DNA from: a virus
Taxonomy: Duplodnaviria > Caudoviricetes
IMG/VR virus record: IMGVR_UViG_3300002895_000002
Coordinates: 64,001-128,000 of that record
DNA length: 64,000 bases
Direction: 5' to 3' (one strand)
The translations under genes were made by a program, and so were the position numbers. Below, piece after piece: positions 380-44,358 of this stretch. Position 1 is the stretch's first letter; each line of letters opens with the position of its first letter. Below the pieces are notes generated by a model. The model did no database searches and was not told the DNA's origin. It was given only the letters and a program-made list of their open reading frames with translations.

Positions 380-469
380 ATAAATAGATGTGACGGGGAC
401 AGTGGAGTTTCACCTCCTCCATTGGTTGTCAGTGCCACCTGCAACCTTACCCGTTCCATCCTTATTTAT
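380..469 (+). ncRNA. HEG-associated structured element, copy E0
   Basis: ATAAATA..GGGA CAGTGGAG[tttcacctc]CTCCATTG GTTG t CAG[tgccac]CTG CAAC CTTACC..TATTTAT; same architecture as four other copies. Confidence 0.7.
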
Positions 470-501
470 CAAATCCTAAGAAAATCAATGGAAATAAACC
501 A

Positions 502-681
502 ATGAATAAAGAAATGAAGATCAGATGTCAGGTTTGTGGTGAATGGATTCCAGTTCGGTACATTCATAACCACGTGGATTGGCAACACCAGGCCAACACC
601 GAATACCATAGTTACATTATGGGATTAACAGTCGAAGAGATATTAGAAAATTCAAAGAATAATTTCCAGCTCAGAATTTGA
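502..681 (+). CDS. small C2H2-like zinc-finger protein (59 aa)
   Basis: Manual translation MNKEMKIRCQVCGEWIPVRYIHNHVDWQH...; CxxC..HxxxxH spacing. Confidence 0.5.
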   Translation: MNKEMKIRCQVCGEWIPVRYIHNHVDWQHQANTEYHSYIMGLTVEEILENSKNNFQLRI

Positions 682-706
682 CAGATCCCTCTCTTCATGT
701 TACCAT
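678..706 (+). promoter_or_regulatory. sigma70-type (early) promoter upstream of folE
   Basis: TTGACA(678-683)-17 nt-TACCAT(701-706) with TGn extended -10. Confidence 0.65.
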
Positions 707-745
707 ACTTTTACATTGAACATGTGAACAAGAAAGGAACCACCA

Positions 746-1423
746 ATGGCATTTGATCCATCAAAACTCGACAAAACACTCGGCAATCAAATTCACGAAC
801 ATCTGAAGACACTCGGGATTGAAACTCCCACGACAGATCTGCTTTTGCTGGATGATGAACAGAAGATCCAGACCATTATGCCACACGTCCAAGCAATTCT
901 CGAGACTCTCGGTCTTGACCTGACCGATGACAGTCTTCAGGACACTCCGAAGCGGGTTGCGAAGATGTGGGTTCGAGAAAAGTTCTGGGGTCTGTGTCCG
1001 GGCAAGTTCCCGAAGATGATGACTATCGAGAACAAGATGAAATACCAACAGATGGTCTGTGAGAAAAACATTCGGGTCCTGTCCGACTGTGAACACCACC
1101 TGGCTCAGATCGATGGTTTCGCTCACGTCGCGTATATCTCCAACGGCAAGATTCTCGGTCTGTCCAAGCTCAACCGGATCGTTCAGTATTTCTCGGCAAG
1201 ACCCCAGGTCCAAGAGAGGATTGGCGAGCAGATCGGTGAGGCTCTCAAGTTCATCCTGGGCACAGAAGACGTCGCTGTATGCATCGAAGCTTCTCATTAC
1301 TGCGTGATTGCTCGTGGTGCAAGGGACTACGAATCTTCGACCACCACATCGTTCCTTTCCGGCGTATTCAGGGATGATCCCATGGTCCGGTCGGAGTTCT
1401 ACTCCATGGTCAACGGAAAATAA
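746..1423 (+). CDS. folE: GTP cyclohydrolase I
   Basis: DDSLQDTPKRVAKM, CEHH, GLSKLNRIVQYFSARPQVQER and H.C...RG motifs. Confidence 0.97.
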   Translation: MAFDPSKLDKTLGNQIHEHLKTLGIETPTTDLLLLDDEQKIQTIMPHVQAILETLGLDLTDDSLQDTPKRVAKMWVREKFWGLCPGKFPKMMTIENKMKYQQMVCEKNIRVLSDCEHHLAQIDGFAHVAYISNGKILGLSKLNRIVQYFSARPQVQERIGEQIGEALKFILGTEDVAVCIEASHYCVIARGARDYESSTTTSFLSGVFRDDPMVRSEFYSMVNGK

Positions 1424-1433
1424 AACCGGTATA

Positions 1434-1480
1434 AATGAGAGGTGGGTGAATTTGACATCCACCTCTCATTCTGTTACTAT
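1434..1480 (+). promoter_or_regulatory. sigma70-type promoter inside a 12-bp inverted repeat
   Basis: TTGACA(1452-1457)-17 nt-TACTAT(1475-1480); IR AATGAGAGGTGG(1434-1445)/CCACCTCTCATT(1459-1470). Confidence 0.7.
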
Positions 1481-1507
1481 AAGGTATCAAACAAAGGAAG
1501 GAACCAA

Positions 1508-2767
1508 ATGGCCAATCATCTTGAGTATGTTCTGTCTGGTGTAGGGTTTACTCGCCTCGTGGCAAAACCCCTCCAGGAAAGTGCCGAAGGTGTTGCATGG
1601 GTCAACGATATGTTCACCTCCATGCAAAGTGTCGGTGCTACCCACGGATTTTCCCTTCTGTACAACGCATGGATCGAGCATAGCTTTGGTGAGATTTTCA
1701 AGCTGTTCCGACCTGGGCTTGAAAACGTGTATGCTGACTCGGGTGGTCTTCAGATCGTTACCCAGGGTAAGGCGATCACTGAGGATATGAAGGAGAAGGT
1801 CTACTTCAACCAGGCAAACGGATCTACTAAGGCCATGTGTTTTGATGAGATCCCGGTAACAATCCTGGGTGACAAATCAACCCGGCTGGATCTCGGGTCT
1901 CGTTTCTTTGATGAGACCAAATTCATGGACTGTGCGATCCTTACCGGCAAGAATATTGCCCGGCAGATTGAGATCTTCCTGGATGAGAAAACCAAGTCCC
2001 AACCGATCCTAATCACCCAAGGTAACTGTCTCGAGACCTACATGCAGTGGACTGATCTCGTTCTCCAACAGATCCCAACGAGCCACCACAAGTATATCGG
2101 TGGTATTGCTATGGGGGCGGCGGCTCTCGGCCATGGTCAGCTCGAAGATATCAAACGGGCGTTTTATTTTACCCAGCTCCCGTTTGAGGCAGCTCATAAT
2201 CACGTTCACATCCTGGCTCTCGGATCAGTAACCAGAATCCTTCCTTACCTCATCTTCATGCAAAACGGGGTGTTTCAGGATCTGCACCTGTCATACGACT
2301 CCACCACCCACAGCTCAGGGATTCACATGGGTCGGTATTACAGCCGAAAGGGTGCAAATCTTGAGTTTGGACGGAAGATGGGCCCTGAGTGGGCTGAGAT
2401 CTACGAAGATGTTTGTGCATTGGCTGATGTCGGTCTCGACTTTGAGGAGTTTGTTCGAGTTATTAATATGCCGGCAACCGCGTACGAGAAAGAAACCGGT
2501 GATAGAGTTCCTGCGGTGAAAGCTCTTGCTGCGATGTGTTGTGCATCAGTAAAAAACTTCATTCAGCACGTGGAAAGATGTGTACAATCAAGGAAAGATG
2601 TGTTAAAATTAGCAGACAGTCGGAAGAGCTACCTGGCGTTCAAGCATTTGCATGAGGTCAAGACCCTGCAGGACTTCGTACATTGGGAGACCCAGCTTGG
2701 ACGGTTCCTTCACTCTGTCCCTGTTCAAAGCTCAAGGCCGGCAACACTCGAAAATTTCTTTGAATAA
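1508..2767 (+). CDS. tRNA-guanine transglycosylase-fold protein (DpdA-like deazaguanine DNA transglycosylase candidate)
   Basis: TGT-like DSGGLQ, FDEIP, ITQGN, GGIAMG, HILALG, SYDS motifs in order; next to folE and a QueD-like gene; start at ATG 1508 after AAGGAAGG. Confidence 0.7.
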   Translation: MANHLEYVLSGVGFTRLVAKPLQESAEGVAWVNDMFTSMQSVGATHGFSLLYNAWIEHSFGEIFKLFRPGLENVYADSGGLQIVTQGKAITEDMKEKVYFNQANGSTKAMCFDEIPVTILGDKSTRLDLGSRFFDETKFMDCAILTGKNIARQIEIFLDEKTKSQPILITQGNCLETYMQWTDLVLQQIPTSHHKYIGGIAMGAAALGHGQLEDIKRAFYFTQLPFEAAHNHVHILALGSVTRILPYLIFMQNGVFQDLHLSYDSTTHSSGIHMGRYYSRKGANLEFGRKMGPEWAEIYEDVCALADVGLDFEEFVRVINMPATAYEKETGDRVPAVKALAAMCCASVKNFIQHVERCVQSRKDVLKLADSRKSYLAFKHLHEVKTLQDFVHWETQLGRFLHSVPVQSSRPATLENFFE

Positions 2768-2780
2768 GGAGAACGAACGA

Positions 2781-3143
2781 ATGATCAAAAGGTACATTGA
2801 AGTTCAGATTGTTAAGGAAGGGTGTCACCGTTATCCAGCAGCAGAAACAGATCCAAAACTGGCTGACGTTGATTATCTAGCAAACAGACATTTTCACTAT
2901 TTCTACATCACGGTCAAGATTGAAGTATTTCATAATGATCGGTGTCTTGAATTTCAACAATTTCGTCGATATCTCGAGAAACTCTATAATCAAGGAATTC
3001 TCGAGATAGATTTCAAGTCATGTGAAATGCTCGCCGAAGACCTCATCGGAACTTTGAGCCGAACATATCCAGACCGGGATATGTCAATTCGAGTGTTTGA
3101 AGATAATATCAACGGTGCTGAATTAGTGTATACTGTTGACTAG
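2781..3143 (+). CDS. QueD-like (6-pyruvoyl/6-carboxy-tetrahydropterin synthase-like) protein
   Basis: EGCHRYP, RHFHYF, EF..F, SCEMLAEDL and VFEDNING motifs; T-fold size; RBS AAGGAG. Confidence 0.7.
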   Translation: MIKRYIEVQIVKEGCHRYPAAETDPKLADVDYLANRHFHYFYITVKIEVFHNDRCLEFQQFRRYLEKLYNQGILEIDFKSCEMLAEDLIGTLSRTYPDRDMSIRVFEDNINGAELVYTVD

Positions 3144-3917
3144 GATTGAACTGACAGTTTCTGGGTTATTGTATATTTCAGATTCTTTGAATCGAATGAC
3201 ACGATAACCCAGACTGTCAGCAATCAATTCACATTCATTATCGCGTTTTATTGTTTCTGGTTTTGAATGCCAATAATCACCATCTACTTCAACTAGGATG
3301 TTTGTATTTTTGATCAAAAAATCATAACAGTGGCGCCAATTTGAATTTTTGGTCTTTTTGAATTGGATAAGAAATTGTTGCTCATATTCTATTCCAAGAG
3401 ATGACATGATCTCAATCATTTTCCTCTCTGGTTTAGTATTGGAACCCAAACGACCGGATTTGATTAGAGAAATAACATTTCTCGACGTTGCATCTTTGTG
3501 TTTTTCCGTTCTGGTATATCGCCCAATTCTAGAATTATCACGAACAGCAGCAGATCTCTTCATTTTTTCTTTTGCATCTTCAGAATGGGTCTTTCCAAAC
3601 ATGGGATTATTTTCACCAATCGTTTTGCCCTTCTTTGCATTGGAAATATTCTCATTTCTATTCTTTACCCATTCTGGATCTTTTGATTTTTCATCTATTG
3701 ATTTTCTTGCACGTTCAGCCATTCTTTTTGCATGGCTGGATCTTTCTTCCGGGGTTGTTCTCGCTTCTCTTGATTCTTTTTGTCTTCTAATTATTTCGGG
3801 GCATTTGGTTATTGATTTTTGACATCGCTTTGTTTTTGTGTTATAACTGATGTATAGAGCAGGAAGACCACAATATGCACAGACGTCTTGTTCGGTTGGG
3901 TTCTCAATCAATGGCAT
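3123..3917 (-). CDS. homing endonuclease: NUMOD3 plus C-terminal DUF559/Vsr-like PD-(D/E)XK domain
   Basis: GENNPMFGKTHSEDAKEKM, NTKPERKM, YDFLI..LVEVDGDYWH..RD; AT-rich; converges on the QueD-like gene. Confidence 0.8.
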   Translation of the reverse strand: MPLIENPTEQDVCAYCGLPALYISYNTKTKRCQKSITKCPEIIRRQKESREARTTPEERSSHAKRMAERARKSIDEKSKDPEWVKNRNENISNAKKGKTIGENNPMFGKTHSEDAKEKMKRSAAVRDNSRIGRYTRTEKHKDATSRNVISLIKSGRLGSNTKPERKMIEIMSSLGIEYEQQFLIQFKKTKNSNWRHCYDFLIKNTNILVEVDGDYWHSKPETIKRDNECELIADSLGYRVIRFKESEIYNNPETVSSILVNSIH

Positions 3918-3980
3918 GGTAAATACTCCAGACATAAATTCATTCTATCCATCATTATTTATCAAGAAAGGCAAGAAATA

Positions 3981-5036
3981 ATGAAAAAACAGCTCTTTAT
4001 CTTCTCTCTGGAGCCATTGGAGTCCCGCTACACCAAGCAATGGTTCACTCATTTGCCGAAAGTGTTTGGCGAGAAGCTTCCTGAGTTTGAAATCATTCAG
4101 CTCAACGGAACAACGACGTCAGGAAAGCCCACGGAGGGTGCTTTCCTTGACTTCGCTGCAACCAACCTGTGGAAGAACGAGCAAATGAACCTCTTCTTTC
4201 AACGGCTGGGAGCAGGTCAGATTGATGACAATGCTGTGATCCTGTTCACTGACGCATGGAACCCGACTATCCTTGAGGTCAAGTACACCAAGGATCTACT
4301 CAAGAAGAATTGGAAGTTGGTTTCGATCTGGCACGCAGGGTCCTACATAGATGAAGACCCACTCGGTCAGCTCATTCAGGACAAGAGATGGTCCTTGGCT
4401 GCCGAGCGTTCGTTCTACGAGGCATGTGATGTCAACCTGTTCGCCAGCGTTGATCACATTCGCCGGTTTGTTCATGTTATGCCGGGTATCAATGTCAAGA
4501 AGGCACACCGGACAGGATTTCCGATGGAATATATCAGTGAGATTGAACTTCCAAAGGTTCCAAAGAAGAATCAGATTCTGTTTGGTGCTCGACTCAGTCC
4601 TGAGAAGCAACCGGATATTTTCGACGCTCTGTCTGTCCTGCTCCCTGAGTACGAGTTTGTTGCTCCCTTGAGGGATCCCAACCCAACGAAAGAAAAGTAT
4701 CACCTGGCTCTGGCGGAATCAAAGGTCGCTGTTTGGTTCTCAACTCTCGAGACCCTTGGCATAGGTCAGCATGAGGCTCTCCACGCTGGGGCGATACCGC
4801 TAGTTCCTTCCCGGTTGTGTTATCCAGAGCAGTATCCGATCAACTCACCGTTCATCTACCCAGGGGAATGGGCTCAGAATCTTGCTACATCCAATTTACC
4901 TGCGTTGGCTAAGAAGATCAAAGACCTGGTTGAGAATCACGAGAGCTACCATGAAGAAATGGCAAGTGCATATCACTTCCAGCGTGAGAATTTCTTTGGC
5001 TGTGACATTATGTGTAATATCATAAGGGGACTCTAA
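3981..5036 (+). CDS. glycosyltransferase (GT-B-like)
   Basis: LEPLESRYTKQW N-terminus; C-terminal RLSPEKQP..STLETLGIGQHEALHAGAIPLVP resembles the GT-B nucleotide-sugar motif. Confidence 0.7.
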   Translation: MKKQLFIFSLEPLESRYTKQWFTHLPKVFGEKLPEFEIIQLNGTTTSGKPTEGAFLDFAATNLWKNEQMNLFFQRLGAGQIDDNAVILFTDAWNPTILEVKYTKDLLKKNWKLVSIWHAGSYIDEDPLGQLIQDKRWSLAAERSFYEACDVNLFASVDHIRRFVHVMPGINVKKAHRTGFPMEYISEIELPKVPKKNQILFGARLSPEKQPDIFDALSVLLPEYEFVAPLRDPNPTKEKYHLALAESKVAVWFSTLETLGIGQHEALHAGAIPLVPSRLCYPEQYPINSPFIYPGEWAQNLATSNLPALAKKIKDLVENHESYHEEMASAYHFQRENFFGCDIMCNIIRGL

Positions 5037-5566
5037 TGAAGAGAGACTATTCGGACGGCAACACAAACAAAGCAGTTAAATTCTTTGTAGGTAATGAGAT
5101 TGAAAAGACCTCAGCCTATGGAAAGAAGACTCTGTTTGTCGTAATCGACGAAGGCCTTACCAAAGAAGAAGTTGTTGATCAGCTTGTCAACGATGTATCC
5201 ATTGAGCATGTGTATCTCGGAGCAAACAAGTCCAACGAAAACAAATTCAGAGAGGCGTTGCTTGAAAGGATAATCAGGTCAATTCTTATCCTTGATCACC
5301 GACCCATCCACGTCACCATCGATGTCCCATACGAGAAATATGCGAATGTTACTCGGTGGGATCCGGAACTGATGCTTCATAATCGGGTTCATGTGAACTT
5401 GTCTGTTCCTGTTGATAACATCAAGAGGATTAAAAATCTCACAATTAAGATAGACGATATCGGATTCAATATCACCAACGATGGGGTCTGGTGTTTCGAG
5501 CTTGACAAACATCCCGAGTGCAAAACTACATGGGACGAATACAAAGATGACAAGATCATCGAATAG
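5036..5566 (+). CDS. hypothetical protein of the deazaguanine cluster
   Basis: TAATG translational coupling to the glycosyltransferase; 176 aa ORF. Confidence 0.75.
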   Translation: MKRDYSDGNTNKAVKFFVGNEIEKTSAYGKKTLFVVIDEGLTKEEVVDQLVNDVSIEHVYLGANKSNENKFREALLERIIRSILILDHRPIHVTIDVPYEKYANVTRWDPELMLHNRVHVNLSVPVDNIKRIKNLTIKIDDIGFNITNDGVWCFELDKHPECKTTWDEYKDDKIIE

Positions 5567-5576
5567 AGGAATCAAT

Positions 5577-6116
5577 ATGATACGATCTGGACTTATCATC
5601 TTCGCACTCATCATCATGAGCATTCTCGGTGTTCATGCCTCTGCGTATGGCGTCGAGTTACTCGTGGAGAACATCAAGGTTTCTGACGGTGACACGTTCA
5701 AAGGGATGTACTACCAACTCCCAATGACTGTCCGTCTAAAGGGCATCGACACTTTCGAGAGTCGACTCGGAGCACGCCTAAACACCCAGATGAACCGGTT
5801 TGGCTTCACTGACCAGTATGAGGCTAAGGCGGTCGGTGTGGCTGCTCGTGAACGACTGAAGCAGATCATGGCCAGCACCCGAGCATGCGTGGTGATTGAT
5901 GAGAATGACCCTACCGACAGCTACGGTCGGTTTGTCGGAAAGGCTCGTCCTGGCACGTGCGGCATTCAGTCGGTCTATGCCATGGACACACTCGTCCGGG
6001 AAGGACTGGCATACGTGGACTACCGCGGCACCACTGATGTGTACTATGCTGATTTGAAGTTGATCGAGGCTCAAGCCAAGGCAGCCAAGCTGGGCATCTG
6101 GAAATACACCAAGTAA
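5577..6116 (+). CDS. thermonuclease (SNase-like) with N-terminal signal/membrane segment
   Basis: VSDGDTF, VRLKGIDTFE, DSYGRFVG, LVREGLA and AKAAKLGIW motifs; hydrophobic N-terminus. Confidence 0.9.
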   Translation: MIRSGLIIFALIIMSILGVHASAYGVELLVENIKVSDGDTFKGMYYQLPMTVRLKGIDTFESRLGARLNTQMNRFGFTDQYEAKAVGVAARERLKQIMASTRACVVIDENDPTDSYGRFVGKARPGTCGIQSVYAMDTLVREGLAYVDYRGTTDVYYADLKLIEAQAKAAKLGIWKYTK

Positions 6117-6138
6117 TTACGATGAAAGGAAAGAACGA

Positions 6139-6840: not shown

Positions 6841-6860
6841 GGAATGACATTTCGTCCATG

Positions 6861-6902
6861 ATAAATAAAGGTGCTTGGGACATAAACCCAAGCACCTTTA
6901 TT
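6861..6902 (+). promoter_or_regulatory. late promoter motif overlapping a 16-bp hairpin
   Basis: ATAAATA 6861-6867; IR AATAAAGGTGCTTGGG(6864-6879)/CCCAAGCACCTTTATT(6887-6902). Confidence 0.6.
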
Positions 6903-6919
6903 CTTATTTGAGGATAATC

Positions 6920-7378
6920 ATGGACAAATTTATTGGAATACTCGAAGAACAAATTATGATCGATCTTATTAATGAAGAAAGATCACAAACTCAAAAGGAT
7001 GCGATGGAACGAGACTATAAAGCTCTCAAAAGTATTCATCGAATCACCGGAAAATTTATTCCTCTTTCAAAAATGGATGGATTGAGATACTCTGTAAATA
7101 ACAAAGGTCAGCATTTCCATCTTATACATGATAGTATTGGTGTTGATCACAAAGTCAGTTTTGATGACGTCAACCATCATGCTGGAATTGGAACACATGA
7201 ATTTGCAGATTTCCTTAATAGACACGGTGCAAGACAAGTAGATTACAATGGGAAAGATATCCCAGATCATCTCAAGTTTGCTCCATCCAGAGTTGCCTCA
7301 TCGTCAAATAATCAAAATGGATCAAAATCATGGAAACAGGTTGGTCCTAACGGATTTTGGAAACTCGTCGACGCCTAG
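6920..7378 (+). CDS. hypothetical protein, candidate head-internal protein
   Basis: MDKFIGILEE N-terminus; late promoter and RBS upstream. Confidence 0.65.
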   Translation: MDKFIGILEEQIMIDLINEERSQTQKDAMERDYKALKSIHRITGKFIPLSKMDGLRYSVNNKGQHFHLIHDSIGVDHKVSFDDVNHHAGIGTHEFADFLNRHGARQVDYNGKDIPDHLKFAPSRVASSSNNQNGSKSWKQVGPNGFWKLVDA

Positions 7379-7387
7379 GAGAATAAT

Positions 7388-9181: not shown

Positions 9182-9205
9182 TCTGAGAGGAATAAATAAT
9201 ACAAG

Positions 9206-9880: not shown

Positions 9881-9886
9881 GAGAAT

Positions 9887-33642: not shown

Positions 33643-33656
33643 TAACAAATAACGTC

Positions 33657-34424: not shown

Positions 34425-34484
34425 ATAAATACCTTTAGAGAAGTTTTTAACTATCAAACTTATTTATCTACATCGGAGAAAATT

Positions 34485-34694: not shown

Positions 34695-34713
34695 TCCAAC
34701 AACGGAGAATGAC

Positions 34714-36128: not shown

Positions 36129-36137
36129 GAGATAGAG

Positions 36138-36461: not shown

Positions 36462-36463
36462 AT

Positions 36464-36492
36464 TTGACTTTTCCTTTCCTTGGTTGTATAAT
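36464..36492 (+). promoter_or_regulatory. sigma70-type promoter
   Basis: TTGACT-17 nt-TATAAT. Confidence 0.7.
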
Positions 36493-36495
36493 GAA

Positions 36496-37126
36496 CTAAA
36501 TGGATAGTTTACGTTTCAGATGTGCAAGTCTCATTTTTTCTTTGGTTTCAGGTGAATGTGTTTTTCCTTTCATGCCTTTTGGATGCCCATTTTTTAAACT
36601 ATCCTTTATTTTTTGGCAATGCTCTAATGAAAGTTTTTTACCTTTCTTTTCTGAAGGTTTTCCTTTGTTGGCTTTACTCATGATGTCTTTAATTTCATCA
36701 GCACGGTCAGGGCTCATTTCTTCTAAAGTACGTCCTTTACGCGCTGATGGTTTTCCTTTATGCCATTTTCCTCCACGTGCGCTTGATTCTCTAAGTCGCT
36801 CTTTGGTTTTTTCATCGGCAAATTGATACGTATTGCCGCCATTACCACCAGGAACTAAGTTATAGGTGTCTTTTCTGGAAATAAACCATTCATCAACTAT
36901 TTGTTTTTCTATTTCTAACGCATGTTCAGCTGATATACAGTAATGAAGAATAATTCTGACGAAGTTTTCTTTTCCATATTTCTTTACTGCTTTGACTATG
37001 TTTCTACCAGAACCAATATAACCGTCATCAATGCGATTAGTTGACCTTTTTTCCAACATAGATTTTGCTGTTTATTAAATTGGTGGTAAGATAAACAAAA
37101 TGAAATGACTTTTCTTCATGTGCCAT
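36496..37126 (-). pseudogene. GIY-YIG/NUMOD3 homing endonuclease split by a frameshift
   Basis: ATG 37126 gives MAHEEKSFHFVYLTTNLINSKIYVGK, then stops; the domain continues (RSTNRIDDGYIGSG) in another frame after an A6 run at 37047-37052. Confidence 0.8.
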
Positions 37127-37143
37127 GACGGTCTCCTATAACC

Positions 37144-37227
37144 ATAAATAGAGTTGACAGGGACAACAGTTTCCTAGCTGCTGGTTGTCGTTGGCAGACG
37201 CAACCTTACCCGTTCAATACTATTTAT
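37144..37227 (+). ncRNA. HEG-associated structured element, copy E1
   Basis: ATAAATA..GGGA CAACAGT[ttccta]GCTGCTG GTTG t CGTT[ggca]GACG CAAC CTTACC..TATTTAT. Confidence 0.7.
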
Positions 37228-37243
37228 AAACTAAGGAAAGAAA

Positions 37244-37972
37244 ATGATAAGTTTACCAAATGAATTACGATTTTCTCCCTACAGTCACAGCAAGATGTCA
37301 CTCTTCTATGAGTGTCCTCACAAGTGGTACCATACATACATCACGAAATCCATGCCGCGTGAACAGAAAGCCGCGTTTGAGAAAGGCGGCTTCATTCACT
37401 ACGCTCTGGATCATTACCCCAACCCCACCCCGAAGAAATACACGTTCAAACTCGCCAGTAATGAAATGCAAGAGGAATGGGTTGATCTTCTCAAAACCAT
37501 CCTTCAGCAGCCTCGAGTCAGAACTATCATCAAGAACAAGATTAACAGTGAATTTACCTGGATCTTGGATCACAACTTCACTCTCGGAACAAACAAGTGG
37601 AAATCGTTAATCTACGGGGTTGTTGACGGAATGACACAGACAGGAAACCGGCTCTGTCTGTACTACTGGAAGACCGGTAAGTCCGATGGCGATAGTGACC
37701 AACTCAAACTCTATGCTCTCTGGGCAATGATTGCTCGTCCCAACCTGAAAGAAGTCCTTTGCAGTTTTGAATATGTGGAGCGAAACACTTTCGATGAATT
37801 CCGGTACGACCAGAGCCAAGTCCCGGAAATGAAAGAATGGCTCTATGAGAAGATATCAAACATAGAAAACGCAACAGAATTTAGTCCAACTCCGTGCAAA
37901 GGATGTTCTTACTGTCCGAAATACACAGTATGTCCGGCACATAAGATCACAATACCTATTTCACGCGGTTGA
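37244..37972 (+). CDS. PD-(D/E)XK RecB/Cas4-like nuclease with Fe-S cysteines
   Basis: SHSKMSLFYECP, G..IH..L, GVVD, WKTG, QLKLYA, CSYC..VC; expected catalytic Asp reads Tyr. Confidence 0.8.
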   Translation: MISLPNELRFSPYSHSKMSLFYECPHKWYHTYITKSMPREQKAAFEKGGFIHYALDHYPNPTPKKYTFKLASNEMQEEWVDLLKTILQQPRVRTIIKNKINSEFTWILDHNFTLGTNKWKSLIYGVVDGMTQTGNRLCLYYWKTGKSDGDSDQLKLYALWAMIARPNLKEVLCSFEYVERNTFDEFRYDQSQVPEMKEWLYEKISNIENATEFSPTPCKGCSYCPKYTVCPAHKITIPISRG

Positions 37973-38639
37973 TATGTGATTGTCTGATTTTATTTTTGGT
38001 TTCTTCCGATCTGGCTCTACCTAATAATGAGTCCCGAATTTTTTGTTTGGTTTCTTCTGAACATTTTCTTCCAGTGTTCACTTCTAATAATTTTGCTCTA
38101 TGTGATTCTGATATAGGTTTACCTTTTCTTGATTTACTCATATTTTCTTTATGTTCATCAGAAAATATTATACCTTTTCTAGACTCACTTATTTTTCTCT
38201 TGGTTTCTTCTGATCTGGGTTTAGAATTTTTACCTTTCATTGCTTTGCTTCTTTTATCAATATGCTCTTTTGATTGTTTTCTGCCTTTTTGAGATTTGCT
38301 CATTTTTATTATTGTAGCTGACGAATGTTTGTAACCTAACTTTAGCCAAGAATAATCTTTGGATGTATATTTTCCATTATTTGACATATAGGAAAAGGCT
38401 CTAGCCATCTTCGGACCTTTCACTTTATGACCTCGCCATATACGAGCAAGAAGCAGATGGGCAATGAAGTGCTCACGTAAAGGAAGATTAACTCGATTCC
38501 ATCGTCCATCGATATCATCTATTCCATCAAGTTTAGCAAAGGACCTAGGGATGATGTGGTGATTTTCAGTTTGCTTTTTGATCTTGGGGGTGGTACAATT
38601 GCGTTCGATGATACGGTTGTAAATTGATTGATAATCCAT
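37956..38639 (-). CDS. HNH homing endonuclease with NUMOD3 repeats (paralog of 33657-34424)
   Basis: ENHHIIPRS..REHFIAHLLL; near-identical N-terminal ~95 aa to the paralog. Confidence 0.88.
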   Translation of the reverse strand: MDYQSIYNRIIERNCTTPKIKKQTENHHIIPRSFAKLDGIDDIDGRWNRVNLPLREHFIAHLLLARIWRGHKVKGPKMARAFSYMSNNGKYTSKDYSWLKLGYKHSSATIIKMSKSQKGRKQSKEHIDKRSKAMKGKNSKPRSEETKRKISESRKGIIFSDEHKENMSKSRKGKPISESHRAKLLEVNTGRKCSEETKQKIRDSLLGRARSEETKNKIRQSHINRVK

Positions 38640-38658
38640 AGACGGTTTCTCCTAACCG

Positions 38659-38745
38659 ATAAATAAGAGTAGAACAGGGACAGCGGTTTCTCCACCGTTG
38701 AGTTTCAGGGCCAACTGAACTCTTACCTGTTTCATGTTTATTTAT
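38659..38745 (+). ncRNA. HEG-associated structured element, copy E2
   Basis: ATAAATA..GGGA CAGCGGT[ttctcc]ACCGTTG AGTT t CAG[ggccaa]CTG AACT CTTACC..TATTTAT. Confidence 0.7.
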
Positions 38746-38769
38746 ATTTTAACAGAAAGGAATAAGACA

Positions 38770-39147
38770 ATGGCTGAGAAATTTGAAGTAGTAGCTCCGA
38801 ACGGGAAGGATATCACCTTCTCTGACATGAAAGGCCGTAAAACCTATGCTCATGGCGAGCAGATTGAGATGAATTCTTTCGTTGCTATGTTCCCGGGATT
38901 CTTCAAGCGAGTTGAAGATGCAGTCAAGGAAGTAGTTGCTGATGCCAAGGAAGCGGTCGAGGAGATCGTGGAGAAGGTTGAGGAGCAGATCGAGGAGATC
39001 AAGGAAGAGGTGGCTGAGGCCGTCGAGACCGCTGAGGAAGTAGTGGAAGCGGTTGTCGAAGAGGTGAAGGAAGCCGCCGCCGAGATCGAAGAGAAGGTCG
39101 AAGGGATCGTCGAAAAGAAAACGGCTGGTAAGAAGGGCAAAAAATAA
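38770..39147 (+). CDS. acidic low-complexity protein
   Basis: Glu/Ala/Val-rich helix with Lys-rich tail; RBS AAGGA. Confidence 0.6.
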   Translation: MAEKFEVVAPNGKDITFSDMKGRKTYAHGEQIEMNSFVAMFPGFFKRVEDAVKEVVADAKEAVEEIVEKVEEQIEEIKEEVAEAVETAEEVVEAVVEEVKEAAAEIEEKVEGIVEKKTAGKKGKK

Positions 39148-39157
39148 GAGGTGACTC

Positions 39158-39922
39158 ATGGCCCTTCCGGTCCGGATCAAGAAAAAGTCAGAGCTGGTTG
39201 ATTACATTCTCCGCAAGCTGGGTTCCCCTGCTGTCAACGTAGAATTAACCAACGAGCACCTCGACGACGCAATTGAGGATACGCTCGAGGAATTCCTTCC
39301 TCGAGCTTATTCCGGCACACTCGAACGGTATGTTCAACTCCAGCTCATAAAGGATCAGCAAGATTACAGACTTCCTGATTCTGTTTTTGCTGTTCTCGGT
39401 GTGTTCAACAACAACATCGGTGACTATACTGTCTCCTCCACTGATATGTTCTCTGCCAACCAGTACATCGCCGCAGACATCTTTGGCGGGAACCTAAAGA
39501 ACGTTGACCTGCTTACCTATACAATGACCCAGCAGTTTATTGAAACGATGGGTTTGATCTTTGGTAAGCGGATCACGTTTGACTTTAACTCCAACACCAG
39601 AATCCTTCACCTTCATGAGCCGCCGAAGAGCAACATATTCACAGTAATGCACTTCTACATGTTCCTTGAGCGTGACGAAGATCCATTAACTCAGGACGAA
39701 CTCACGAACATCTACGATAACAAGTGGGTCAAAAGGATGGCGGTTGAGATGGCTCGGTATCAATGGGGTGTGAACCTCATGAAGTACAATGGCACAGTCC
39801 TTCCGAACGGGATGAATCTCAATGCTGGTGGCATCCTGGATATGGCAGAGAAGAATAAAGAGAAACTGATGGAAGAACTCCATAACGAATGGTCTTTACC
39901 TACCGACTTCTACATCGGGTGA
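39158..39922 (+). CDS. gp13: neck protein gp13
   Basis: ELVDYILRKLGSPAVNVEL, WVK.MA..QWG.NL.KY....LP.G..LN and LP.DFYIG motifs. Confidence 0.9.
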   Translation: MALPVRIKKKSELVDYILRKLGSPAVNVELTNEHLDDAIEDTLEEFLPRAYSGTLERYVQLQLIKDQQDYRLPDSVFAVLGVFNNNIGDYTVSSTDMFSANQYIAADIFGGNLKNVDLLTYTMTQQFIETMGLIFGKRITFDFNSNTRILHLHEPPKSNIFTVMHFYMFLERDEDPLTQDELTNIYDNKWVKRMAVEMARYQWGVNLMKYNGTVLPNGMNLNAGGILDMAEKNKEKLMEELHNEWSLPTDFYIG

Positions 39923-39985
39923 ATGTAGGTTTCCGGTTGATTTTTTACCTTTCTTGATAAATAGTATTACAAGAAAGGAAATATC

Positions 39986-41101
39986 ATGCGAGACTTTATT
40001 CTCAGCACTTTTATCACCAAACGAGGAACTTGTGATAGTTCAAAAATAAATCTTCTCTCAAATTATCATGATGACCTAGTTGAACTTGTTCCTGGGTGTG
40101 ATGGTGATGATAAAGAACGATTGTTTTGGTTATCGAGAGGGATAACAGAAGCTCCGGTTTGCAAAACTTGTGGTGGAAAAACAAAGTGGAAAGGGCTCTT
40201 TACTGTTGGAAAGAAGAGCTCTTATCCACTTTTCTGTTCTCCTGCTTGTAGAGCAAAAGATCCAGATGTTACCGAAAAACTCAAGGACTCTCAGTCAAAT
40301 CTCTATCAAGATGAAATGTTAGCAGTTTCTAATAAAGATGAATTGATAGAAATAATCAAACGTCGTTATTATAATGGCAGCAAAACAAATGGCAACTTCC
40401 TTCGTGCTCTCACTCCAAATATAAAAAGTCTACTCAATACTCTTACTCCAAAACTCAAATCTAACGACTACAAAGAAAAGATCTATTGGGTGATGAACGG
40501 ATTTGAAGACTACCCAAATTGGTGTTCGTGTGGCAACCCAATCACTCAGTTTAGAAAAGAATATAAGTGGAAGTTCTGTTCTAACAAATGCAAAGCAAAT
40601 GATCCTGATTTCCAAAAACAAAGAATCGAAACAACAACCTCACGATATGGGACTTCAAATAACAATGCAAAAACCAAACAAACAAACATAAAGAAGTATG
40701 GTGTTGAAAACGTATCACAAATCCCAGCGGTAGCTGATAAGATACTCAAAAATGGACACAGAAAGAAAGTATACACATTTCCTTCTGGAAGAAAAGTATT
40801 CGTTCAAGGATACGAGCCCCAAGCAATCGATGAATTGTTGAAAACATATAATGAAGATGATATTGTTCTTGATCGAAAACAAATACCAACATTTTGGTGG
40901 AACGACAAAACAGGAAAGAAGCACAGATATTTCCCTGATATATTCATCCCAAAAGACAATCTGGTAGTTGAAGTAAAGAGTAAGTGGACCTATGACTCTG
41001 CAAAAGATGTAAATGAGCGAAAGTTCGAACGTGTTCGGGAATCTACCTACAACTTTCGTTTGATGATACTTGATAAATACCAATGGAGGATTCTACCATG
41101 A
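39986..41101 (+). CDS. putative homing endonuclease (Zn-ribbon repeats plus C-terminal PD-(D/E)XK domain)
   Basis: CKTCG/CSPAC/CSCG/CSNKC, KKYGVENVSQ, VQGYE, YFPDIFIP..VVEVKS; AT-rich. Confidence 0.75.
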   Translation: MRDFILSTFITKRGTCDSSKINLLSNYHDDLVELVPGCDGDDKERLFWLSRGITEAPVCKTCGGKTKWKGLFTVGKKSSYPLFCSPACRAKDPDVTEKLKDSQSNLYQDEMLAVSNKDELIEIIKRRYYNGSKTNGNFLRALTPNIKSLLNTLTPKLKSNDYKEKIYWVMNGFEDYPNWCSCGNPITQFRKEYKWKFCSNKCKANDPDFQKQRIETTTSRYGTSNNNAKTKQTNIKKYGVENVSQIPAVADKILKNGHRKKVYTFPSGRKVFVQGYEPQAIDELLKTYNEDDIVLDRKQIPTFWWNDKTGKKHRYFPDIFIPKDNLVVEVKSKWTYDSAKDVNERKFERVRESTYNFRLMILDKYQWRILP

Positions 41102-41535
41102 ACAAATTCATAGATATGCTCGAAACAGCTCCACAAGTCAATAAGAAACTTGCTGACAGTCAGGCCAAGATTGCTCAGCGAATCCGTATCCAGAAGGAAC
41201 GGGAAGCTCAGATCAAAGCAATGACCATGCAGGAATCTGAGGACTTTGATCAGTATCTTTCGTCCATTGACTCTGTGATCTATGAGAACGCTGCTGTTCA
41301 TCCTGAAGGTGGGGCAGTTCGGGATGGTGGTCGTTTTGTTCTGAGTCATCATGTCATAAAGACGGATCCCTATCTCTTCGGCATGGACACGGACGAGCAC
41401 AAGCGATTCATTTCGAAGGCAGGGACCAAAGGCGATGCAAAAGTAACAATGCATGCTCCTGGGTTCTACGATCTGTATTTTGACGATGGTGACATTGTTC
41501 CAGCAATATCCGGTCATTTCGTTAAGCCGGCATAA
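41098..41535 (+). CDS. hypothetical protein, candidate head-internal protein
   Basis: MNKFIDMLE start; RBS GGAGG. Confidence 0.6.
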   Translation: MNKFIDMLETAPQVNKKLADSQAKIAQRIRIQKEREAQIKAMTMQESEDFDQYLSSIDSVIYENAAVHPEGGAVRDGGRFVLSHHVIKTDPYLFGMDTDEHKRFISKAGTKGDAKVTMHAPGFYDLYFDDGDIVPAISGHFVKPA

Positions 41536-41556
41536 TATACCAAGGAGAAATCAAAC

Positions 41557-42123
41557 ATGAGTAAAATGGATCTGTATCTCAAAGGTCTCGATGGTCTTGC
41601 TACAGTGATCGGTGCTGCCCTGGTTGTTGAGAGCAAAGAAGAAGTAAAAGAAGAGCCGACAGTCATCGAAGAGAGTGTTGAGGAAGAATACCTCTGTGAA
41701 GGCATCAAATCTTCCTCACTCAAGAAGGGTGATCGGGTGATGATGAAGGACAAGTATGAAGAGATTCCGGTTGAAATTCTCGGGTTCTCTCATCACTCCG
41801 CTAAGTATGGTGATCATAGCAAATATGACGCCAAACACGACCCGGAAGGCAAGTTCAAAGGCAAGGACTTTGAATCCCATAAGGAAATGTTGGATCACTA
41901 CGGAGTAAAGAGCCTCAAGGACCTCGAGCAACACGAAGACATCAAGAAAGCGGAGTATGGTCATCACCCATACATGAAACTCAAAGCCCATGAGAACGGA
42001 AACTCGTACGACTTCAACGCATACCCGTATAAGGGTCGGTGGAATGTTGGTACTAGCGCTGACAGCATTTCCTTCCGTAAGATGACCCCGGAAGAGGAAG
42101 AGAAGCATTTCGGTAGTAAGTAA
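41557..42123 (+). CDS. hypothetical protein, acidic propeptide-like N-terminus
   Basis: RBS AAGGAG; E-rich leader ending in LCE. Confidence 0.65.
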   Translation: MSKMDLYLKGLDGLATVIGAALVVESKEEVKEEPTVIEESVEEEYLCEGIKSSSLKKGDRVMMKDKYEEIPVEILGFSHHSAKYGDHSKYDAKHDPEGKFKGKDFESHKEMLDHYGVKSLKDLEQHEDIKKAEYGHHPYMKLKAHENGNSYDFNAYPYKGRWNVGTSADSISFRKMTPEEEEKHFGSK

Positions 42124-42138
42124 CCTATACCGCTTAGA

Positions 42139-42852
42139 TCATTTCCAGAAAAGAAACGCGACTAGTCCAATAAGGGCGGATTCACGTTGTTCCGCCCTTC
42201 GTTGTTTTATTATTTTGGACATGTATGCTTTGTGTTCATCTGAGTGGATGTGTTTACCCTTATTTGCTTCACTTATTTTTCGACAATGCTCCTCAGACCT
42301 CTGGGGTTTTGGTACTCCCCTCAATGAATCGGAAATCTTACGTTTGGTTTCGTTGGATAATGTCTTACCAGTTTGTGCTCTGGAATTTTTTGCTCTCTCT
42401 TCCACACTCACAACTCGACCAGATAGAGATTTACTTCTTTTCTCTCGAGTTTCGTTGCTTATAGATGTTGCTGCTATCCTTTTCTTGGCTCTGGTTTCTT
42501 CTGATGGGTTACGATTAGCATCTCCTATCTTCTGACGGTGTTCTTTAGAAGGGGACCTTCCTTTTCTATTGGGTGGTCTATATCCACCAGGCGTTAGGTT
42601 ATAAACATCTGTTCTGGAAAGAAATGATCTATCCACAATCCAAGACTCAATCTCATAAGCCTCTTCCTCGTTTCTGGCTAGATGAAGGATGTGTCGTTGG
42701 AAATTATTCTTTCCATACTTTTTGATGGCTTTGAGGATGTTATCTCCCGAACCCAGATATGAATCCTTGAGTCGATTAGCGGAATGGACGCCGACGTAGA
42801 TTTTGCCGTTGATAAGATTGTGAGTGAGGTAGATAAAGTGATACAGTTTCAT
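42139..42852 (-). CDS. GIY-YIG homing endonuclease with NUMOD3 repeats
   Basis: FIYLTHNLINGKIYVGVH..YLGSG..YNL; start ATG 42852 after GGAG. Confidence 0.9.
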   Translation of the reverse strand: MKLYHFIYLTHNLINGKIYVGVHSANRLKDSYLGSGDNILKAIKKYGKNNFQRHILHLARNEEEAYEIESWIVDRSFLSRTDVYNLTPGGYRPPNRKGRSPSKEHRQKIGDANRNPSEETRAKKRIAATSISNETREKRSKSLSGRVVSVEERAKNSRAQTGKTLSNETKRKISDSLRGVPKPQRSEEHCRKISEANKGKHIHSDEHKAYMSKIIKQRRAEQRESALIGLVAFLFWK

Positions 42853-42862
42853 GGTGACTCCG

Positions 42863-42948
42863 ATAAATAGATGTGACAGGGACATCGGGAGTGACTCCCT
42901 TCCGTTGAGTCTCAGCTGCAACTGGACTCTTACCTGTCTATTATTTAT
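42863..42948 (+). ncRNA. HEG-associated structured element, copy E3
   Basis: ATAAATA..GGGA CATCGG[gagtgactccctt]CCGTTG AGTC t CAG[ctgcaa]CTG GACT CTTACC..TATTTAT. Confidence 0.7.
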
Positions 42949-42964
42949 AATACCTGGATAGAAA

Positions 42965-43639
42965 ATGCCAATACCAACATTCAACAGACAGACGACGGTT
43001 TTTAAGTTCAATGAACGTTATGCACCAGACCAAGGTGAAGCTCATTTATATCATACAATCTTGTGCGAGGCCGTTTGGAAGCACGGAACTGATGTTATTT
43101 TCATTCCCCGGGTCATCTCGGGGATTGAGAAAATCTTTGGAGAGTACCTTGCTCCTGTTCTGGAGAAAGGACATCCGTTCCGGATGTTTGTTGATGAGGT
43201 AGAGAACTGGAACGGGACTGGTGACATGTATTCCCGCTTTGGTCTCAAGGTTCAAGATTCGATGACCTGCTGGCTCCCCATCGATAGCTTCCGGGAACAG
43301 AACCCAGATGGTAGTGATGGGGAGTTGCTTTTCCCTCAGCACAATGACCTCTTATACCACGTGCCGTCCAAGAAGCTCTTTGAGATCACTCACGTGGAAA
43401 ATGAGAGTCACCCAAGTTTCTATCTGTTTGGAAACCTCCGTTGCTATAAGTTTACCACCACTCTGTACTCTTACAACCACGAAGAAGTGGTTGACGATGC
43501 ATCGCTCCCTGAAGGGCTGTTTGAGCTTAGCCAGCAAGCTGAGCCCCAAGATTTTGATCGAAACAATCAGCGGTATCAGGATAGAACAGTAACAGAGCAA
43601 ACGTTGGACAAAACTGAGAAAAATCCAATTTTTGAGTAG
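42965..43639 (+). CDS. gp14: neck protein gp14
   Basis: E....HG.DV.FIPR, FG..., GD.YSRFG..VQD, DLLY....KLFEI.HVE...FY..G motifs. Confidence 0.9.
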   Translation: MPIPTFNRQTTVFKFNERYAPDQGEAHLYHTILCEAVWKHGTDVIFIPRVISGIEKIFGEYLAPVLEKGHPFRMFVDEVENWNGTGDMYSRFGLKVQDSMTCWLPIDSFREQNPDGSDGELLFPQHNDLLYHVPSKKLFEITHVENESHPSFYLFGNLRCYKFTTTLYSYNHEEVVDDASLPEGLFELSQQAEPQDFDRNNQRYQDRTVTEQTLDKTEKNPIFE

Positions 43640-44259
43640 CTATTTCTTATATTTGCAGTTATCACCATGCCATCTCTTTATCAATGAGGGGATGGCTTCT
43701 TTTTTGCAATAAGGACATATAGCATTTGGTCTATTTCTTATAGACTCACTCATCTTCTGTTTGCTTTCTTCAGTGTGGGTCCACCCAGTATAAGGTGTTC
43801 GTTGTTTTGCTTTTTCGCTTATTATCTTTTTTGATTCATCCGAATGTTTCCACCCAGTATAAGGTGTTCGTTGTTTTGCTTTCTCACTCATTATCTTCTT
43901 TGAGTCGACTGAGTGTTTTTGCCCCTTTCTTCTCAATGCTCTTTTTTCTACATGTTCTTTTGATTGTTTTTCCCTTTTTGATTTGGTGGTCGACGACCAC
44001 CCGGGACAAGATTATAGGTGTCTTTTCTCTTTATAAAAGAATTGTCAACCATCCAAGATTCAAACTCGTAAGCTTCCTCTTCATTCCTACCGATAAAAAG
44101 AATGGTTCTTTTGAATTGATCTTTTCCATACTTTTTGATCGCAGGAAGTAATAAAAACCCAGATCCCAAGTATGAATCTTCAAACGAATCAGACGAATGA
44201 ACACCAACATAAATCATATTGTTTATAAGGTTCTGAGTAAGATAGACGAAGTGATACAC
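43640..44259 (-). pseudogene. GIY-YIG/NUMOD3 homing endonuclease split by a frameshift
   Basis: GTG 44259: VYHFVYLTQNLINNMIYVGVH..YLGSG; frame breaks at an A5 run (43967-43971); the other frame continues KQSKEHVEKRA. Confidence 0.8.
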
Positions 44260-44276
44260 GAATGTCTCCTGATGAC

Positions 44277-44358
44277 ATAAATAGGATTGTGGGGACAGCA
44301 GTTTCCTGGACTGTTGGTGTTCGTTGCCCGACGACACCTTACCCACAATCCTATTTAT
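44277..44358 (+). ncRNA. HEG-associated structured element, copy E4
   Basis: Perfect 17-bp terminal IR ATAAATAGGATTGTGGG/CCCACAATCCTATTTAT; core GGGA CAGCAGT[ttcctgg]ACTGTTG GTGT t CGTT[gccc]GACG ACAC CTTACC. Confidence 0.72.

Follow-up and report, generated by a model that had tools for sequence, protein, structure and literature searches.

How selfish nucleases stay harmless enough to persist in phage genomes is only partly understood. Homing endonuclease genes (HEGs) are known to be restrained by hairpins of the same strand in which the ribosome-binding site (RBS) is concealed. For this the answer has so far been a single one, and a repeated element found next to such genes in a 213-kb T4-superfamily phage genome suggests a second, modular one. 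The window analysed is a 64,000-nt stretch of this genome, in which a first-pass annotation had placed five copies of a structured element near the start codons of minus-strand HEGs. All five are present where they had been placed, and were scored with a covariance model. The elements and their associated genes are listed below.

380..469, + strand: element copy 1 (91.9 bits), with left box 380-386, P1 392-397/450-455, P2 400-424, P3 425-445 and right box 463-469
1..367, − strand: LEM-3-like GIY-YIG HEG of copy 1, intact (PF22945, E 2e-8)
37144..37227, + strand: element copy 2 (88.5 bits)
36496..37126, − strand: GIY-YIG/NUMOD3 HEG of copy 2, one frameshift, ATG at 37126
38659..38745, + strand: element copy 3 (83.1 bits)
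37956..38639, − strand: HNH-type HEG of copy 3 with NUMOD3 repeats, intact, 227 aa (phrog_655, E 2e-37; phrog_12434 HNH)
42863..42948, + strand: element copy 4 (81.5 bits)
42139..42852, − strand: GIY-YIG/NUMOD3 HEG of copy 4, intact, 237 aa
44277..44358, + strand: element copy 5 (77.1 bits)
43640..44259, − strand: GIY-YIG HEG of copy 5, frameshifted, GTG start at 44259

The copy 1 HEG runs past the window start (genome positions 63588-64367). The nuclease assignments made earlier from the translations were right for all five genes, i.e., LEM-3-like GIY-YIG for copy 1, GIY-YIG for copies 2, 4 and 5 (2 and 5 frameshifted) and HNH-type for copy 3, and the claimed adjacency is borne out by distances of 10-19 nt between element and start codon. 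The count of five holds for the window and is an undercount for the genome, where the covariance model detects 16 copies, 16/16 on the + strand and all of them 10-20 nt from the start of a minus-strand HEG. The anchors GGGACA-N38-62-CTTACC occur six times in the window versus 0.09 expected from shuffled sequences, and five of the six occurrences are elements.

About 70 more copies were found in viral and metagenomic contigs, and the family is widespread among uncultured T4-type phage contigs. The covariance model found no element in 13 cultured phages (Los1, PTm1, LR756500, Melnitz, DLP6, phiM7, Syn1, 05F, phage 25, Aeh1, T4, KVP40 and S-PM2), a scan confined to these records. A blastn search for the element in cultured phages returned nothing meaningful. 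Among sequencing runs, a single DNA run contained a small part of the region, and the phage was found in no RNA run.

The partners are indeed unrelated nucleases, as first noted, and belong to at least six families: GIY-YIG, LEM-3-like GIY-YIG, HNH, Vsr-like DUF559, Hef-like DUF7487 and DUF4379 zinc-finger proteins. That the element travels with them is supported by paralogue comparison, in which homology spans the HEG N-terminus and the element and stops at the right end of the element; the copies form the boundaries of shuffled modules. HEG-less empty alleles were sought in relatives, but IMG/VR contains nothing closely related to the gp15-like flank protein and a megablast search with 9.5 kb matched no phage record, so that the cassette boundaries are drawn from the paralogues only.

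The position of the element relative to the HEG start is constant across this genome and five other records, within each of which all copies share one strand, and its orientation to the HEG is fixed whatever orientation the neighbouring genes have. In this genome a + strand gene follows 14/16 copies. In about one third of the other contigs the right-hand gene runs in the direction of the HEG and ends at the right box; an early idea, that the element occurs only with HEGs antisense to their neighbours, fails on these contigs. Orphan copies, which have no divergent gene, lie between co-oriented genes immediately upstream of the next gene, and their P2 loops are very short. A separate sigma-70-like promoter, TTGACA-N17-TATAAT, comes after three copies, and thus the downstream gene there has no need of the element.

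Each copy follows the architecture originally described: ATAAATA, a spacer, P1, GA, P2, P3 with a bulged U, CUUA, P1′, a spacer and TATTTAT. Covariation had been reported for P1 and P3; this holds, and P1, P2 and P3 all covary, both in 13 genome copies and in an alignment of 46 sequences. Among the 13 genome copies 96% of cells are paired, with double changes in 13 of 20 pairs. The 46-sequence alignment has 94% of cells paired and 265 double-change cells, versus 32-55% paired in slid controls. The covariation supports the interpretation as a three-way-junction RNA, and the larger alignment keeps the signal. The junction invariants are GA, CUUA, the closing pairs and one conserved wobble; conserved unpaired nucleotides are few, and the P3 loop varies freely. 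Pairing that continues past the boxes to cover either RBS was not found in the one copy inspected. In agreement with the earlier failure to recognise any known consensus, no Rfam 15 family, among them hammerhead, twister, pistol, hatchet, HEARO and the riboswitches, matched any element at the gathering score, nor the window and metagenomic copies at E up to 10 or 1.

The strand of the RNA is less readily read from the structure. Non-Watson-Crick pairs had been described as mostly G-U on the + strand. This is correct for one special pair, which is G-U in 27 sequences, A-C in 10 and almost never Watson-Crick; elsewhere G-U and A-C are found in a ratio of 12:12, and the G-U argument for strand was therefore dropped. 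G-U pairing is a weak marker of strand, and the remaining evidence favours the + strand too. Folding is as good on one strand as on the other, and the z-scores are only near −2. It should be noted, against an antisense reading, that neither wobble pairs nor folding energy aid the choice of strand.

The P2 loop has a property that was overlooked in the first-pass annotation: it copies the + strand sequence of the Shine-Dalgarno (SD) and spacer of the adjacent HEG. An RNA with the + strand sequence would thus be complementary to this site. Copy 1 serves as the example, in which the loop word is antisense to the SD and spacer of its HEG.

408..416, + strand: 9-nt word in the P2 loop of copy 1, the same sequence as 370-378
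370..378, − strand: Shine-Dalgarno and spacer of the copy 1 HEG, GTG start at 367

A 10-nt word in copy 3 (38684-38693) is equal to the flank at 38643-38652, and an 8-nt word in copy 4 (42891-42898) to that at 42854-42861. In copy 2 the loop word 37172-37176 matches the flank 37134-37138 and extends to 11 nt with two transitions; in copy 5 the word 44304-44308 matches 44267-44271, with an 8-nt match if one C-to-T change is allowed. The longest word common to loop and RBS has a median of 8 nt for cognate versus 4 for non-cognate pairs (permutation p<5e-5), and the duplex energy is −11.4 versus −6.2 kcal/mol, the cognate site ranking in the top 5 in 43/51 cases. After de-duplication at least 7 nt are common to 27/42 cognate pairs, about a third sharing less than 7 nt, versus 79/1722 non-cognate pairs, and 31 distinct words are represented. 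The match was repeated in two later, independently collected sets, making three sets altogether. Neither P3 nor the flank of the downstream gene gave a signal of this kind, and a same-strand control of loop versus RBS gave no pairing signal (−4.3 versus −3.9 kcal/mol).

The RBS itself sits 0-12 nt outside the left box and is not part of any same-strand helix. The loop match reaches into the spacer between SD and start codon, and in some copies, e.g., copy 4, part of the anti-RBS word is taken up by the upper P2 stem. Counted over the first and metagenome sets, and read from flank to loop, the mismatches comprise 10 C-to-T and 2 T-to-C changes, an excess that amounts to just 5-7 independent events, and several loop copies weaken the SD core, GGAG becoming GGAA. 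For a C-to-T change to yield a G-U pair, the loop must be that of the + strand and its partner the HEG mRNA, and this is thus evidence on direction. The complementarity of the loop to the neighbouring RBS suggests a re-programmable antisense brake on translation.

The invariant ATAAATA and TATTTAT ends, whose likeness to promoters had been missed, are probably T4-type late-promoter boxes set face to face. The phage genome has genes for a gp55 homologue (E 9e-16) and a gp23 capsid protein. Outside the elements ATAAATA is found 68 times on the + strand and 7 times on the minus strand, in most cases with an RBS and ATG 15-40 nt downstream. A purine is present at +6 after the box in 34/39 generic sites, in 15/15 left boxes and in 15/16 right boxes. 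The left box and P1 are separated by 4-6 nt in 44/59 elements, with a mode of 5, and since the T4 late-promoter box covers −13 to −6 (PMC2988020), P1 would be located at the predicted late +1. This coincidence of the P1 start with the predicted +1 of the left box had also escaped notice.

Between P1 and the right box the spacing is loose, at 0-6 nt. The right box, taken in the direction of the HEG, has the full-consensus late promoter sequence in 16/16 copies and agrees at −2 and −1 with the consensus of this phage. The left box deviates from that −2/−1 consensus in about one third of copies, and is CTAAATA or degenerate in some metagenomic members; it may thus be a weak promoter.

From the structure, the HEG linkage, the loop-to-RBS match and the promoter-like boxes with their spacing, all of which are observed here, we infer that both RNAs are transcribed, that they pair in vivo and that repression results. 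The element would then be the 5′ control region of a mobile HEG cassette in T4-superfamily phages. Its right box would drive the HEG mRNA, and its left box an opposite-strand RNA whose first nucleotide is the first of P1. This + strand RNA is predicted to fold into the three-way junction, its P2 loop offering 6-11 nt able to base-pair with the SD and spacer of the HEG, and, as a cis-encoded antisense RNA, would pair with the HEG mRNA and occlude the RBS, so that less nuclease is made. It may be a short RNA whose 3′ end lies at the U-rich right box, or it may form the leader of a downstream gene. The scaffold (P1, junction and P3) would be constant and the loop re-written for each HEG, by which one module could serve unrelated nuclease families. 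A difficulty is that the two predicted RNAs are already fully complementary over about 70 nt, so that the extra contact between loop and RBS looks redundant. We put at about even the chance that the element is a mobile control cassette for HEGs and that the cis-antisense RNA it encodes has a programmable loop directed at the RBS.

Cis-antisense RNAs limit mobile-element or toxin genes in several systems, such as IS10 RNA-OUT/RNA-IN, which has face-to-face promoters, and the type I toxin-antitoxin pairs tisB/istR-1 and hok/sok. The element would resemble these in its opposed promoters and 5′-overlapping transcripts, both predicted from the DNA, and in a structured RNA loop complementary to the start region of a potentially harmful gene carried on the same mobile unit. 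Complementarity to the translation initiation region of the target, which is expected of such RNAs, is found here and is cognate-specific in three sets (p<5e-5). The element differs in that its putative targets are HEGs and its promoters putative phage late promoters. In addition, the predicted antisense transcript starts downstream of the target RBS, and thus, unlike in IS10 or the type I antitoxins, the anti-RBS is a separate, re-written copy within a conserved three-way-junction scaffold.

Leader hairpins with an embedded late promoter control the T-even HEGs I-TevI, I-TevII, I-TevIII, segB and Aeh1 mobE (PMC2988022), and hairpins are found upstream of HEGs in “fractured genes” (PMC2677866). 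As with the element, RNA structure and a TATAAATA-type late promoter lie directly upstream of a phage HEG, the HEGs are of different families, and the presumed role is to restrict translation of the nuclease. However, those leaders are simple same-strand hairpins that lie in spacers of 27-51 nt and take up the RBS in cis, whereas the element is an 85-nt three-way junction with the RBS outside the structure and its complement in the loop of a predicted opposite-strand RNA that has its own late-promoter box. Thus the element shares with the T-even leaders a late promoter adjoining the HEG, and lacks their RBS within a same-strand helix; the same-strand “fractured gene” hairpins of Dassa et al., located in 27-51 nt spacers, are a related theme and not this element (PMC2677866). 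The PeSL/PmSL composite promoter-terminator cassettes of T4-like phages (PMC2839356, PMC4122927) are likewise short repeats in T4-type genomes that combine a promoter with RNA structure at points of modular gene shuffling. PeSLs, however, join a simple stem-loop to a sigma-70-like early or Mot-dependent middle promoter that points the same way as the downstream ORF; they show no link to HEGs and lack a loop matched to an RBS. The element, a three-way junction with late-type boxes of which only three copies precede TTGACA-N17-TATAAT, was not assigned to them.

The functional RNA could instead be the HEG-sense leader, its mirror-image junction acting like the T-even leader hairpins, a possibility that we consider unlikely. 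Read-through transcripts would form the full box-closed structure beside the RBS, late transcripts that start inside P1 would be unable to close it and so would undergo translation, and the P2′ loop, as a copy of the RBS, would be a ribosome standby or decoy site. The full-consensus right box agrees with this, as does its distance of 0-6 nt from P1, which is predicted to truncate P1 in many late HEG transcripts. Read-through RNA is plausible in the third of other contigs with a co-oriented right gene, minus-strand folding is equal to that of the + strand, and I-TevI, segB and Aeh1 mobE provide a precedent (PMC2988022). However, the RBS is outside every helix, and the HEG-sense RNA has no complement to it, as the same-strand control indicates. 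A decoy or standby site need not copy the spacer, yet the match enters it; the GGAG to GGAA changes fit a G-U pair and not a decoy; and the tight 5-nt spacing belongs to the other strand. A composite promoter-terminator or insulator cassette of the PeSL kind, in which the loop-RBS similarity is a by-product, is improbable in our judgement. Promoters in both directions, a 5′-terminal stabilising structure and perhaps a bidirectional terminator would let a HEG insert without disturbing its neighbours. Both boxes are promoter-like, and the order A-rich box, stem, U-rich box is read in both directions. Orphan copies directly upstream of the next gene, the + strand genes after 14/16 copies and the position of the copies at the bounds of shuffled modules, PeSLs being known shuffling points in T4-like phages (PMC4122927), also agree. 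This reading leaves unexplained the 31 distinct co-varying loop/RBS words, the conserved junction nucleotides with the G-U/A-C pair, and the fixed orientation to the HEG regardless of neighbours, and the three copies with a following sigma-70-like promoter show a downstream gene that does not need the element.

A role as a catalytic, ligand-binding or protein-binding RNA (ribozyme, riboswitch or processing site) that is merely carried by the HEG cassettes has, we think, only a slight chance of being correct. The invariant junction, with its GA, CUUA, closing pairs and wobble, resembles a specific fold, and an association of small ribozymes with phage and mobile DNA is common. However, the Rfam ribozymes and riboswitches gave no match even at permissive E values, few unpaired nucleotides are conserved while the P3 loop is free to vary, and the loop-RBS match is not predicted. 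Least credible is a function as DNA, i.e., a MITE-like repeat, cruciform, or recombination or homing site whose covariation is inverted-repeat upkeep. Terminal inverted repeats of 10-17 bp do occur in a few copies, that of copy 5 being perfect over 17 bp, and copies mark recombination boundaries. P1 is usually only 5-8 bp, however, the covariation involves three separate helices, and a non-Watson-Crick pair is conserved, while a common target is not expected for HEGs of different families. The insertion of a transposable repeat at unrelated sites in either orientation is not what is seen, given one strand in 16/16 copies and in each of the five other records, with the copies always at the same place with respect to the HEG start.

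The antisense reading can be put in a wider form, which we hold tentatively and at slightly below an even chance: the element may represent a dedicated family of three-way-junction antisense RNAs, each a type I antitoxin-like anti-RBS module with a conserved scaffold and a rewritten loop “address”, that moves with unrelated HEGs and restrains them across uncultured T4-superfamily phages. If this is true, a new RNA family would join the short list of phage-encoded regulatory RNAs. It would also help account for the assembly and shuffling of HEG cassettes, and would provide a compact natural design for programmable translational repression.

A covariance model trained on 13 element copies, each checked by hand, detects 16 copies in the 213-kb phage genome (source record 213,116 bp, G+C 45.6%), with scores of 47-92 bits and all 16 on the + strand. 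The window covers bases 64001-128000 of this IMG/VR record. Anchors of the form GGGACA-N38-62-CTTACC are found six times in the window, compared with 0.09 expected from shuffles. The five window copies and their partner homing endonuclease genes (HEGs) are listed below.

Element copies in the window and their partner genes
380-469, + strand: copy 1; partner on the minus strand, a LEM-3-like GIY-YIG gene
37144-37227, + strand: copy 2; partner at 36496-37126, minus strand, a frameshifted GIY-YIG/NUMOD3 gene
38659-38745, + strand: copy 3; partner on the minus strand, an HNH-type gene
42863-42948, + strand: copy 4; partner on the minus strand, a GIY-YIG/NUMOD3 gene
44277-44358, + strand: copy 5; partner at 43640-44259, minus strand, a frameshifted GIY-YIG/NUMOD3 gene

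The sequences at these positions read as the first-pass annotation described them, and its gene types (one LEM-3-like GIY-YIG, three GIY-YIG with two frameshifted, one HNH) are borne out. HEG start codons, placed by it within about 20 nt of every window copy, lie 10-19 nt away. A minus-strand HEG start is also present in the upstream flanks of the remaining 11 genome copies, the HEG at genome position 143180 being only a remnant. In each of the two frameshifted window HEGs the reading frame shifts once, between the GIY-YIG domain and the NUMOD3 region, yet the adjoining element is intact and its P2 loop matched.

The proposed covarying helices are well supported. Among the 13 genome copies 96% of cells are paired, with changes on both sides in 13 of 20 pairs. 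A larger alignment of 46 sequences, comprising genome copies and sequences from other contigs, has 94% of cells paired, 265 double-change cells and a covariation score of 0.75, versus 32-55% pairing and scores of 0.04-0.15 when the 3′ partners are slid by 1-3 columns. Covariation is present in all three helices of this alignment. Conserved are the two G-C pairs closing P1, the GA linking P1 to P2, a C-G and an A-U at the base of P2, and the CUUA linking P3 to P1. A further conserved pair, in P2, is almost never Watson-Crick: 27 sequences have G-U and 10 have A-C. With this special pair left out, G-U and A-C stand at 12:12; thus wobble pairs do not tell the strand, and the G-U excess earlier taken as a mark of the + strand does not hold. 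Both strands are predicted to give the mirror-image fold, with z-scores near -2. The window and metagenomic copies match no Rfam 15 family at the gathering score or at permissive E-values. A description of the motif is absent from Rfam and from the literature searchable here; a large IMG/VR screen (PMC10690425) may include it as one of its candidates without a name.

Possible reduced forms of the element are also seen. Minimal face-to-face ATAAATA/TATTTAT box pairs, with 29 nt between boxes and without the three-way junction, are located at window 34425-34467 (genome 98425-98467) and genome 148225-148265. The former directly borders the start codon ATG of an HNH-type HEG on the minus strand (MDYQTIYNR...) and has the look of a primitive element or of one that has suffered a deletion. 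Window 6861-6920, just 5′ of a + strand gene, has an ATAAATA box, then a perfect 13-bp hairpin, then U-rich sequence; its covariance model score is weak (22.9 bits), and it is either an unrelated leader or a relative with a simple hairpin.

Two anchored-pattern scans of IMG/VR and one of metagenome contigs, filtered with covariance models, yielded about 70 additional matches outside the phage's own genome, some of them duplicates, on contigs of 25-51% G+C. Other records have two to four copies, in one orientation within each record. The anticipated HEG linkage is seen here as well: the opposite-strand ORF that begins beside the ATAAATA end nearly always encodes a homing endonuclease, and partner families are GIY-YIG, LEM-3-like GIY-YIG, HNH, Vsr-like DUF559, Hef-like DUF7487/phrog_3339 and DUF4379 zinc-finger proteins. 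On one viral contig (L042:1162-3806) the divergent gene encodes a ResIII helicase-like protein of 843 aa that is not recognisable as a HEG product, and a 13-nt stretch with one mismatch is common to its ribosome-binding site (RBS) region and the P2 loop. Two metagenomic copies (L284:637-1717 and L278:1-427) adjoin tRNA genes or tRNA arrays, and L284 has a group I intron (61.9 bits) near the element; the tRNA-adjacent copies fit HEG-rich tRNA regions such as the T4 segB locus. A T4 gp23-family capsid protein is encoded by the phage genome and by one 142-kb record, its nearest cultured relatives (T4-like cyanophages, Melnitz, DLP6 and the phiM12 group) being just 40-48% identical; RNase H is 28% identical to that of T4-like phages. 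The covariance model found no match in 13 cultured phages, among them T4, Aeh1, phage 25, KVP40, S-PM2, Syn1, Melnitz and a Campylobacter phage with many Hef endonucleases.

The right-hand neighbour in the phage genome is usually on the + strand and includes gp13-, gp14- and gp15-like late genes, and in about one third of the other contigs it runs in the direction of the HEG, with its end at the right box. Thus the fixed relationship is with the HEG 5′ end and not with the surrounding genes. Copies at genome 61401, 193334 and 206483 (all +) are followed 10-20 nt further on by a near-consensus sigma-70 promoter (TTGACA/TTGACT-N17-TATAAT/TATAAA), so these cassettes precede early transcription units. 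Two + strand HEG-like genes, at window 39986-41101 and genome 211917, have plain late-promoter leaders without the three-way junction; one matches phrog_3339 and phrog_15137, and another is an HNH-type gene (MNYQSIY). Use of the element is not universal among the HEGs of this phage.

When paralogous copies are compared, homology typically begins about 250-400 nt inside the HEG, spans the whole element and ends 85-100 nt past the element start, at its right edge. Copies beside unrelated HEGs have the element alone in common. Thus the element is a terminal cassette module exchanged between nuclease families, in keeping with the suggestion that it travels with, or is recruited by, unrelated nucleases. 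Copies at genome 50924 and 64380, whose HEG families differ, share the element and 215 nt downstream (window 470-681; genome 51012-51226) at 87% identity. This region holds a 59-aa ORF (window 502-681) that perhaps belongs to a shuffled module; the GIY-YIG subfamilies upstream are unrelated.

The stretch immediately left of the left box, read on the + strand, is repeated in the P2 loop; this stretch is the complement of the HEG Shine-Dalgarno sequence and spacer. The longest common word has a median of 8 nt in cognate and 4 nt in non-cognate pairs (permutation, p<5e-5), and with near-duplicates removed at least 7 nt are common to 27 of 42 cognate versus 79 of 1722 non-cognate pairs, with 31 different words. 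The predicted duplex of + strand loop and HEG mRNA has -11.4 kcal/mol for cognate and -6.2 for non-cognate pairs, and in 43 of 51 cases the cognate ranks among the best five. The match recurs in two later sets, from the second viral scan and the metagenome scan, with words of up to 11 nt. No matching signal was found for P3 against either flank, for P2 against the downstream flank, or in a same-strand control. Differences within matches, from flank to loop, are C-to-T in 10 and T-to-C in 2 (first and metagenome sets), an excess that represents only about 5-7 independent events; C-to-T retains a G-U pair only with the + strand loop on HEG mRNA. In the five copies that lack a divergent gene, the P2 loop is very short.

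Among the genes of this phage is a homologue of the T4 late sigma factor gp55. Not counting the elements, the genome has 68 ATAAATA sites on the + strand and 7 on the minus strand, and most of them are 15-40 nt 5′ of an RBS and ATG. Locally the consensus reads T, T, G or T, ATAAATA, and a purine six bases past the box; since the T4 late promoter box lies at -13 to -6 (PMC2988020), this purine falls at +1. The right box, on the HEG strand, fits the consensus in all 16 genome copies. In the left box the core and the +6 purine are preserved, with deviations at -2 and -1, positions that overlap the complement of the HEG Shine-Dalgarno sequence. Judged by sequence, both boxes are predicted late promoters. 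From the left box to the first paired base of P1 there are 4-6 nt in 44 of 59 elements (mode 5), so that a predicted + strand late transcript would start exactly at P1; the spacer from P1 to the right box is loose (0-6 nt). This geometry favours a structured RNA from the + strand.

The element is most economically read as a control cassette of the HEG with three components: a consensus late promoter that would drive the nuclease gene, a structured leader, and, nested in the leader, an opposite-strand antisense RNA driven by a late promoter, whose P2 loop would be addressed to the RBS of the nuclease gene. We give the antisense reading about an even chance. Loop-RBS matching and box spacing point to it; however, the left box falls short of the consensus in some members of the family, the fold is equally good on both strands, the two predicted RNAs are already complementary over about 70 nt, and the anti-RBS word is partly paired in some copies. 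The main rival, that function resides in the HEG-sense leader, seems unlikely; the consistent right box and the equally good minus-strand fold speak for it, and the same-strand control without signal speaks against it. Still less favoured are a promoter-terminator insulator, an RNA that is a ribozyme or binds a ligand or protein, and an element acting at the DNA level.

In its purpose the proposed antisense cassette would be akin to the same-strand leader hairpins of T-even phages, which hide the RBS of I-TevI, segB or mobE (PMC2988022), and to the same-strand hairpins 5′ of HEGs in fractured genes (PMC2677866). With PeSL cassettes (PMC4122927) it has the idea of a mobile regulatory module in common, but the anatomy differs. 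The sequestered RBS that defines same-strand hairpins is not found in the element. The regulatory logic of the proposed antisense RNA would resemble that of IS10 RNA-OUT/RNA-IN and type I toxin-antitoxin pairs; unlike in those systems, the anti-RBS of the element would be a copy in its own right, carried by a three-way-junction scaffold that is conserved.
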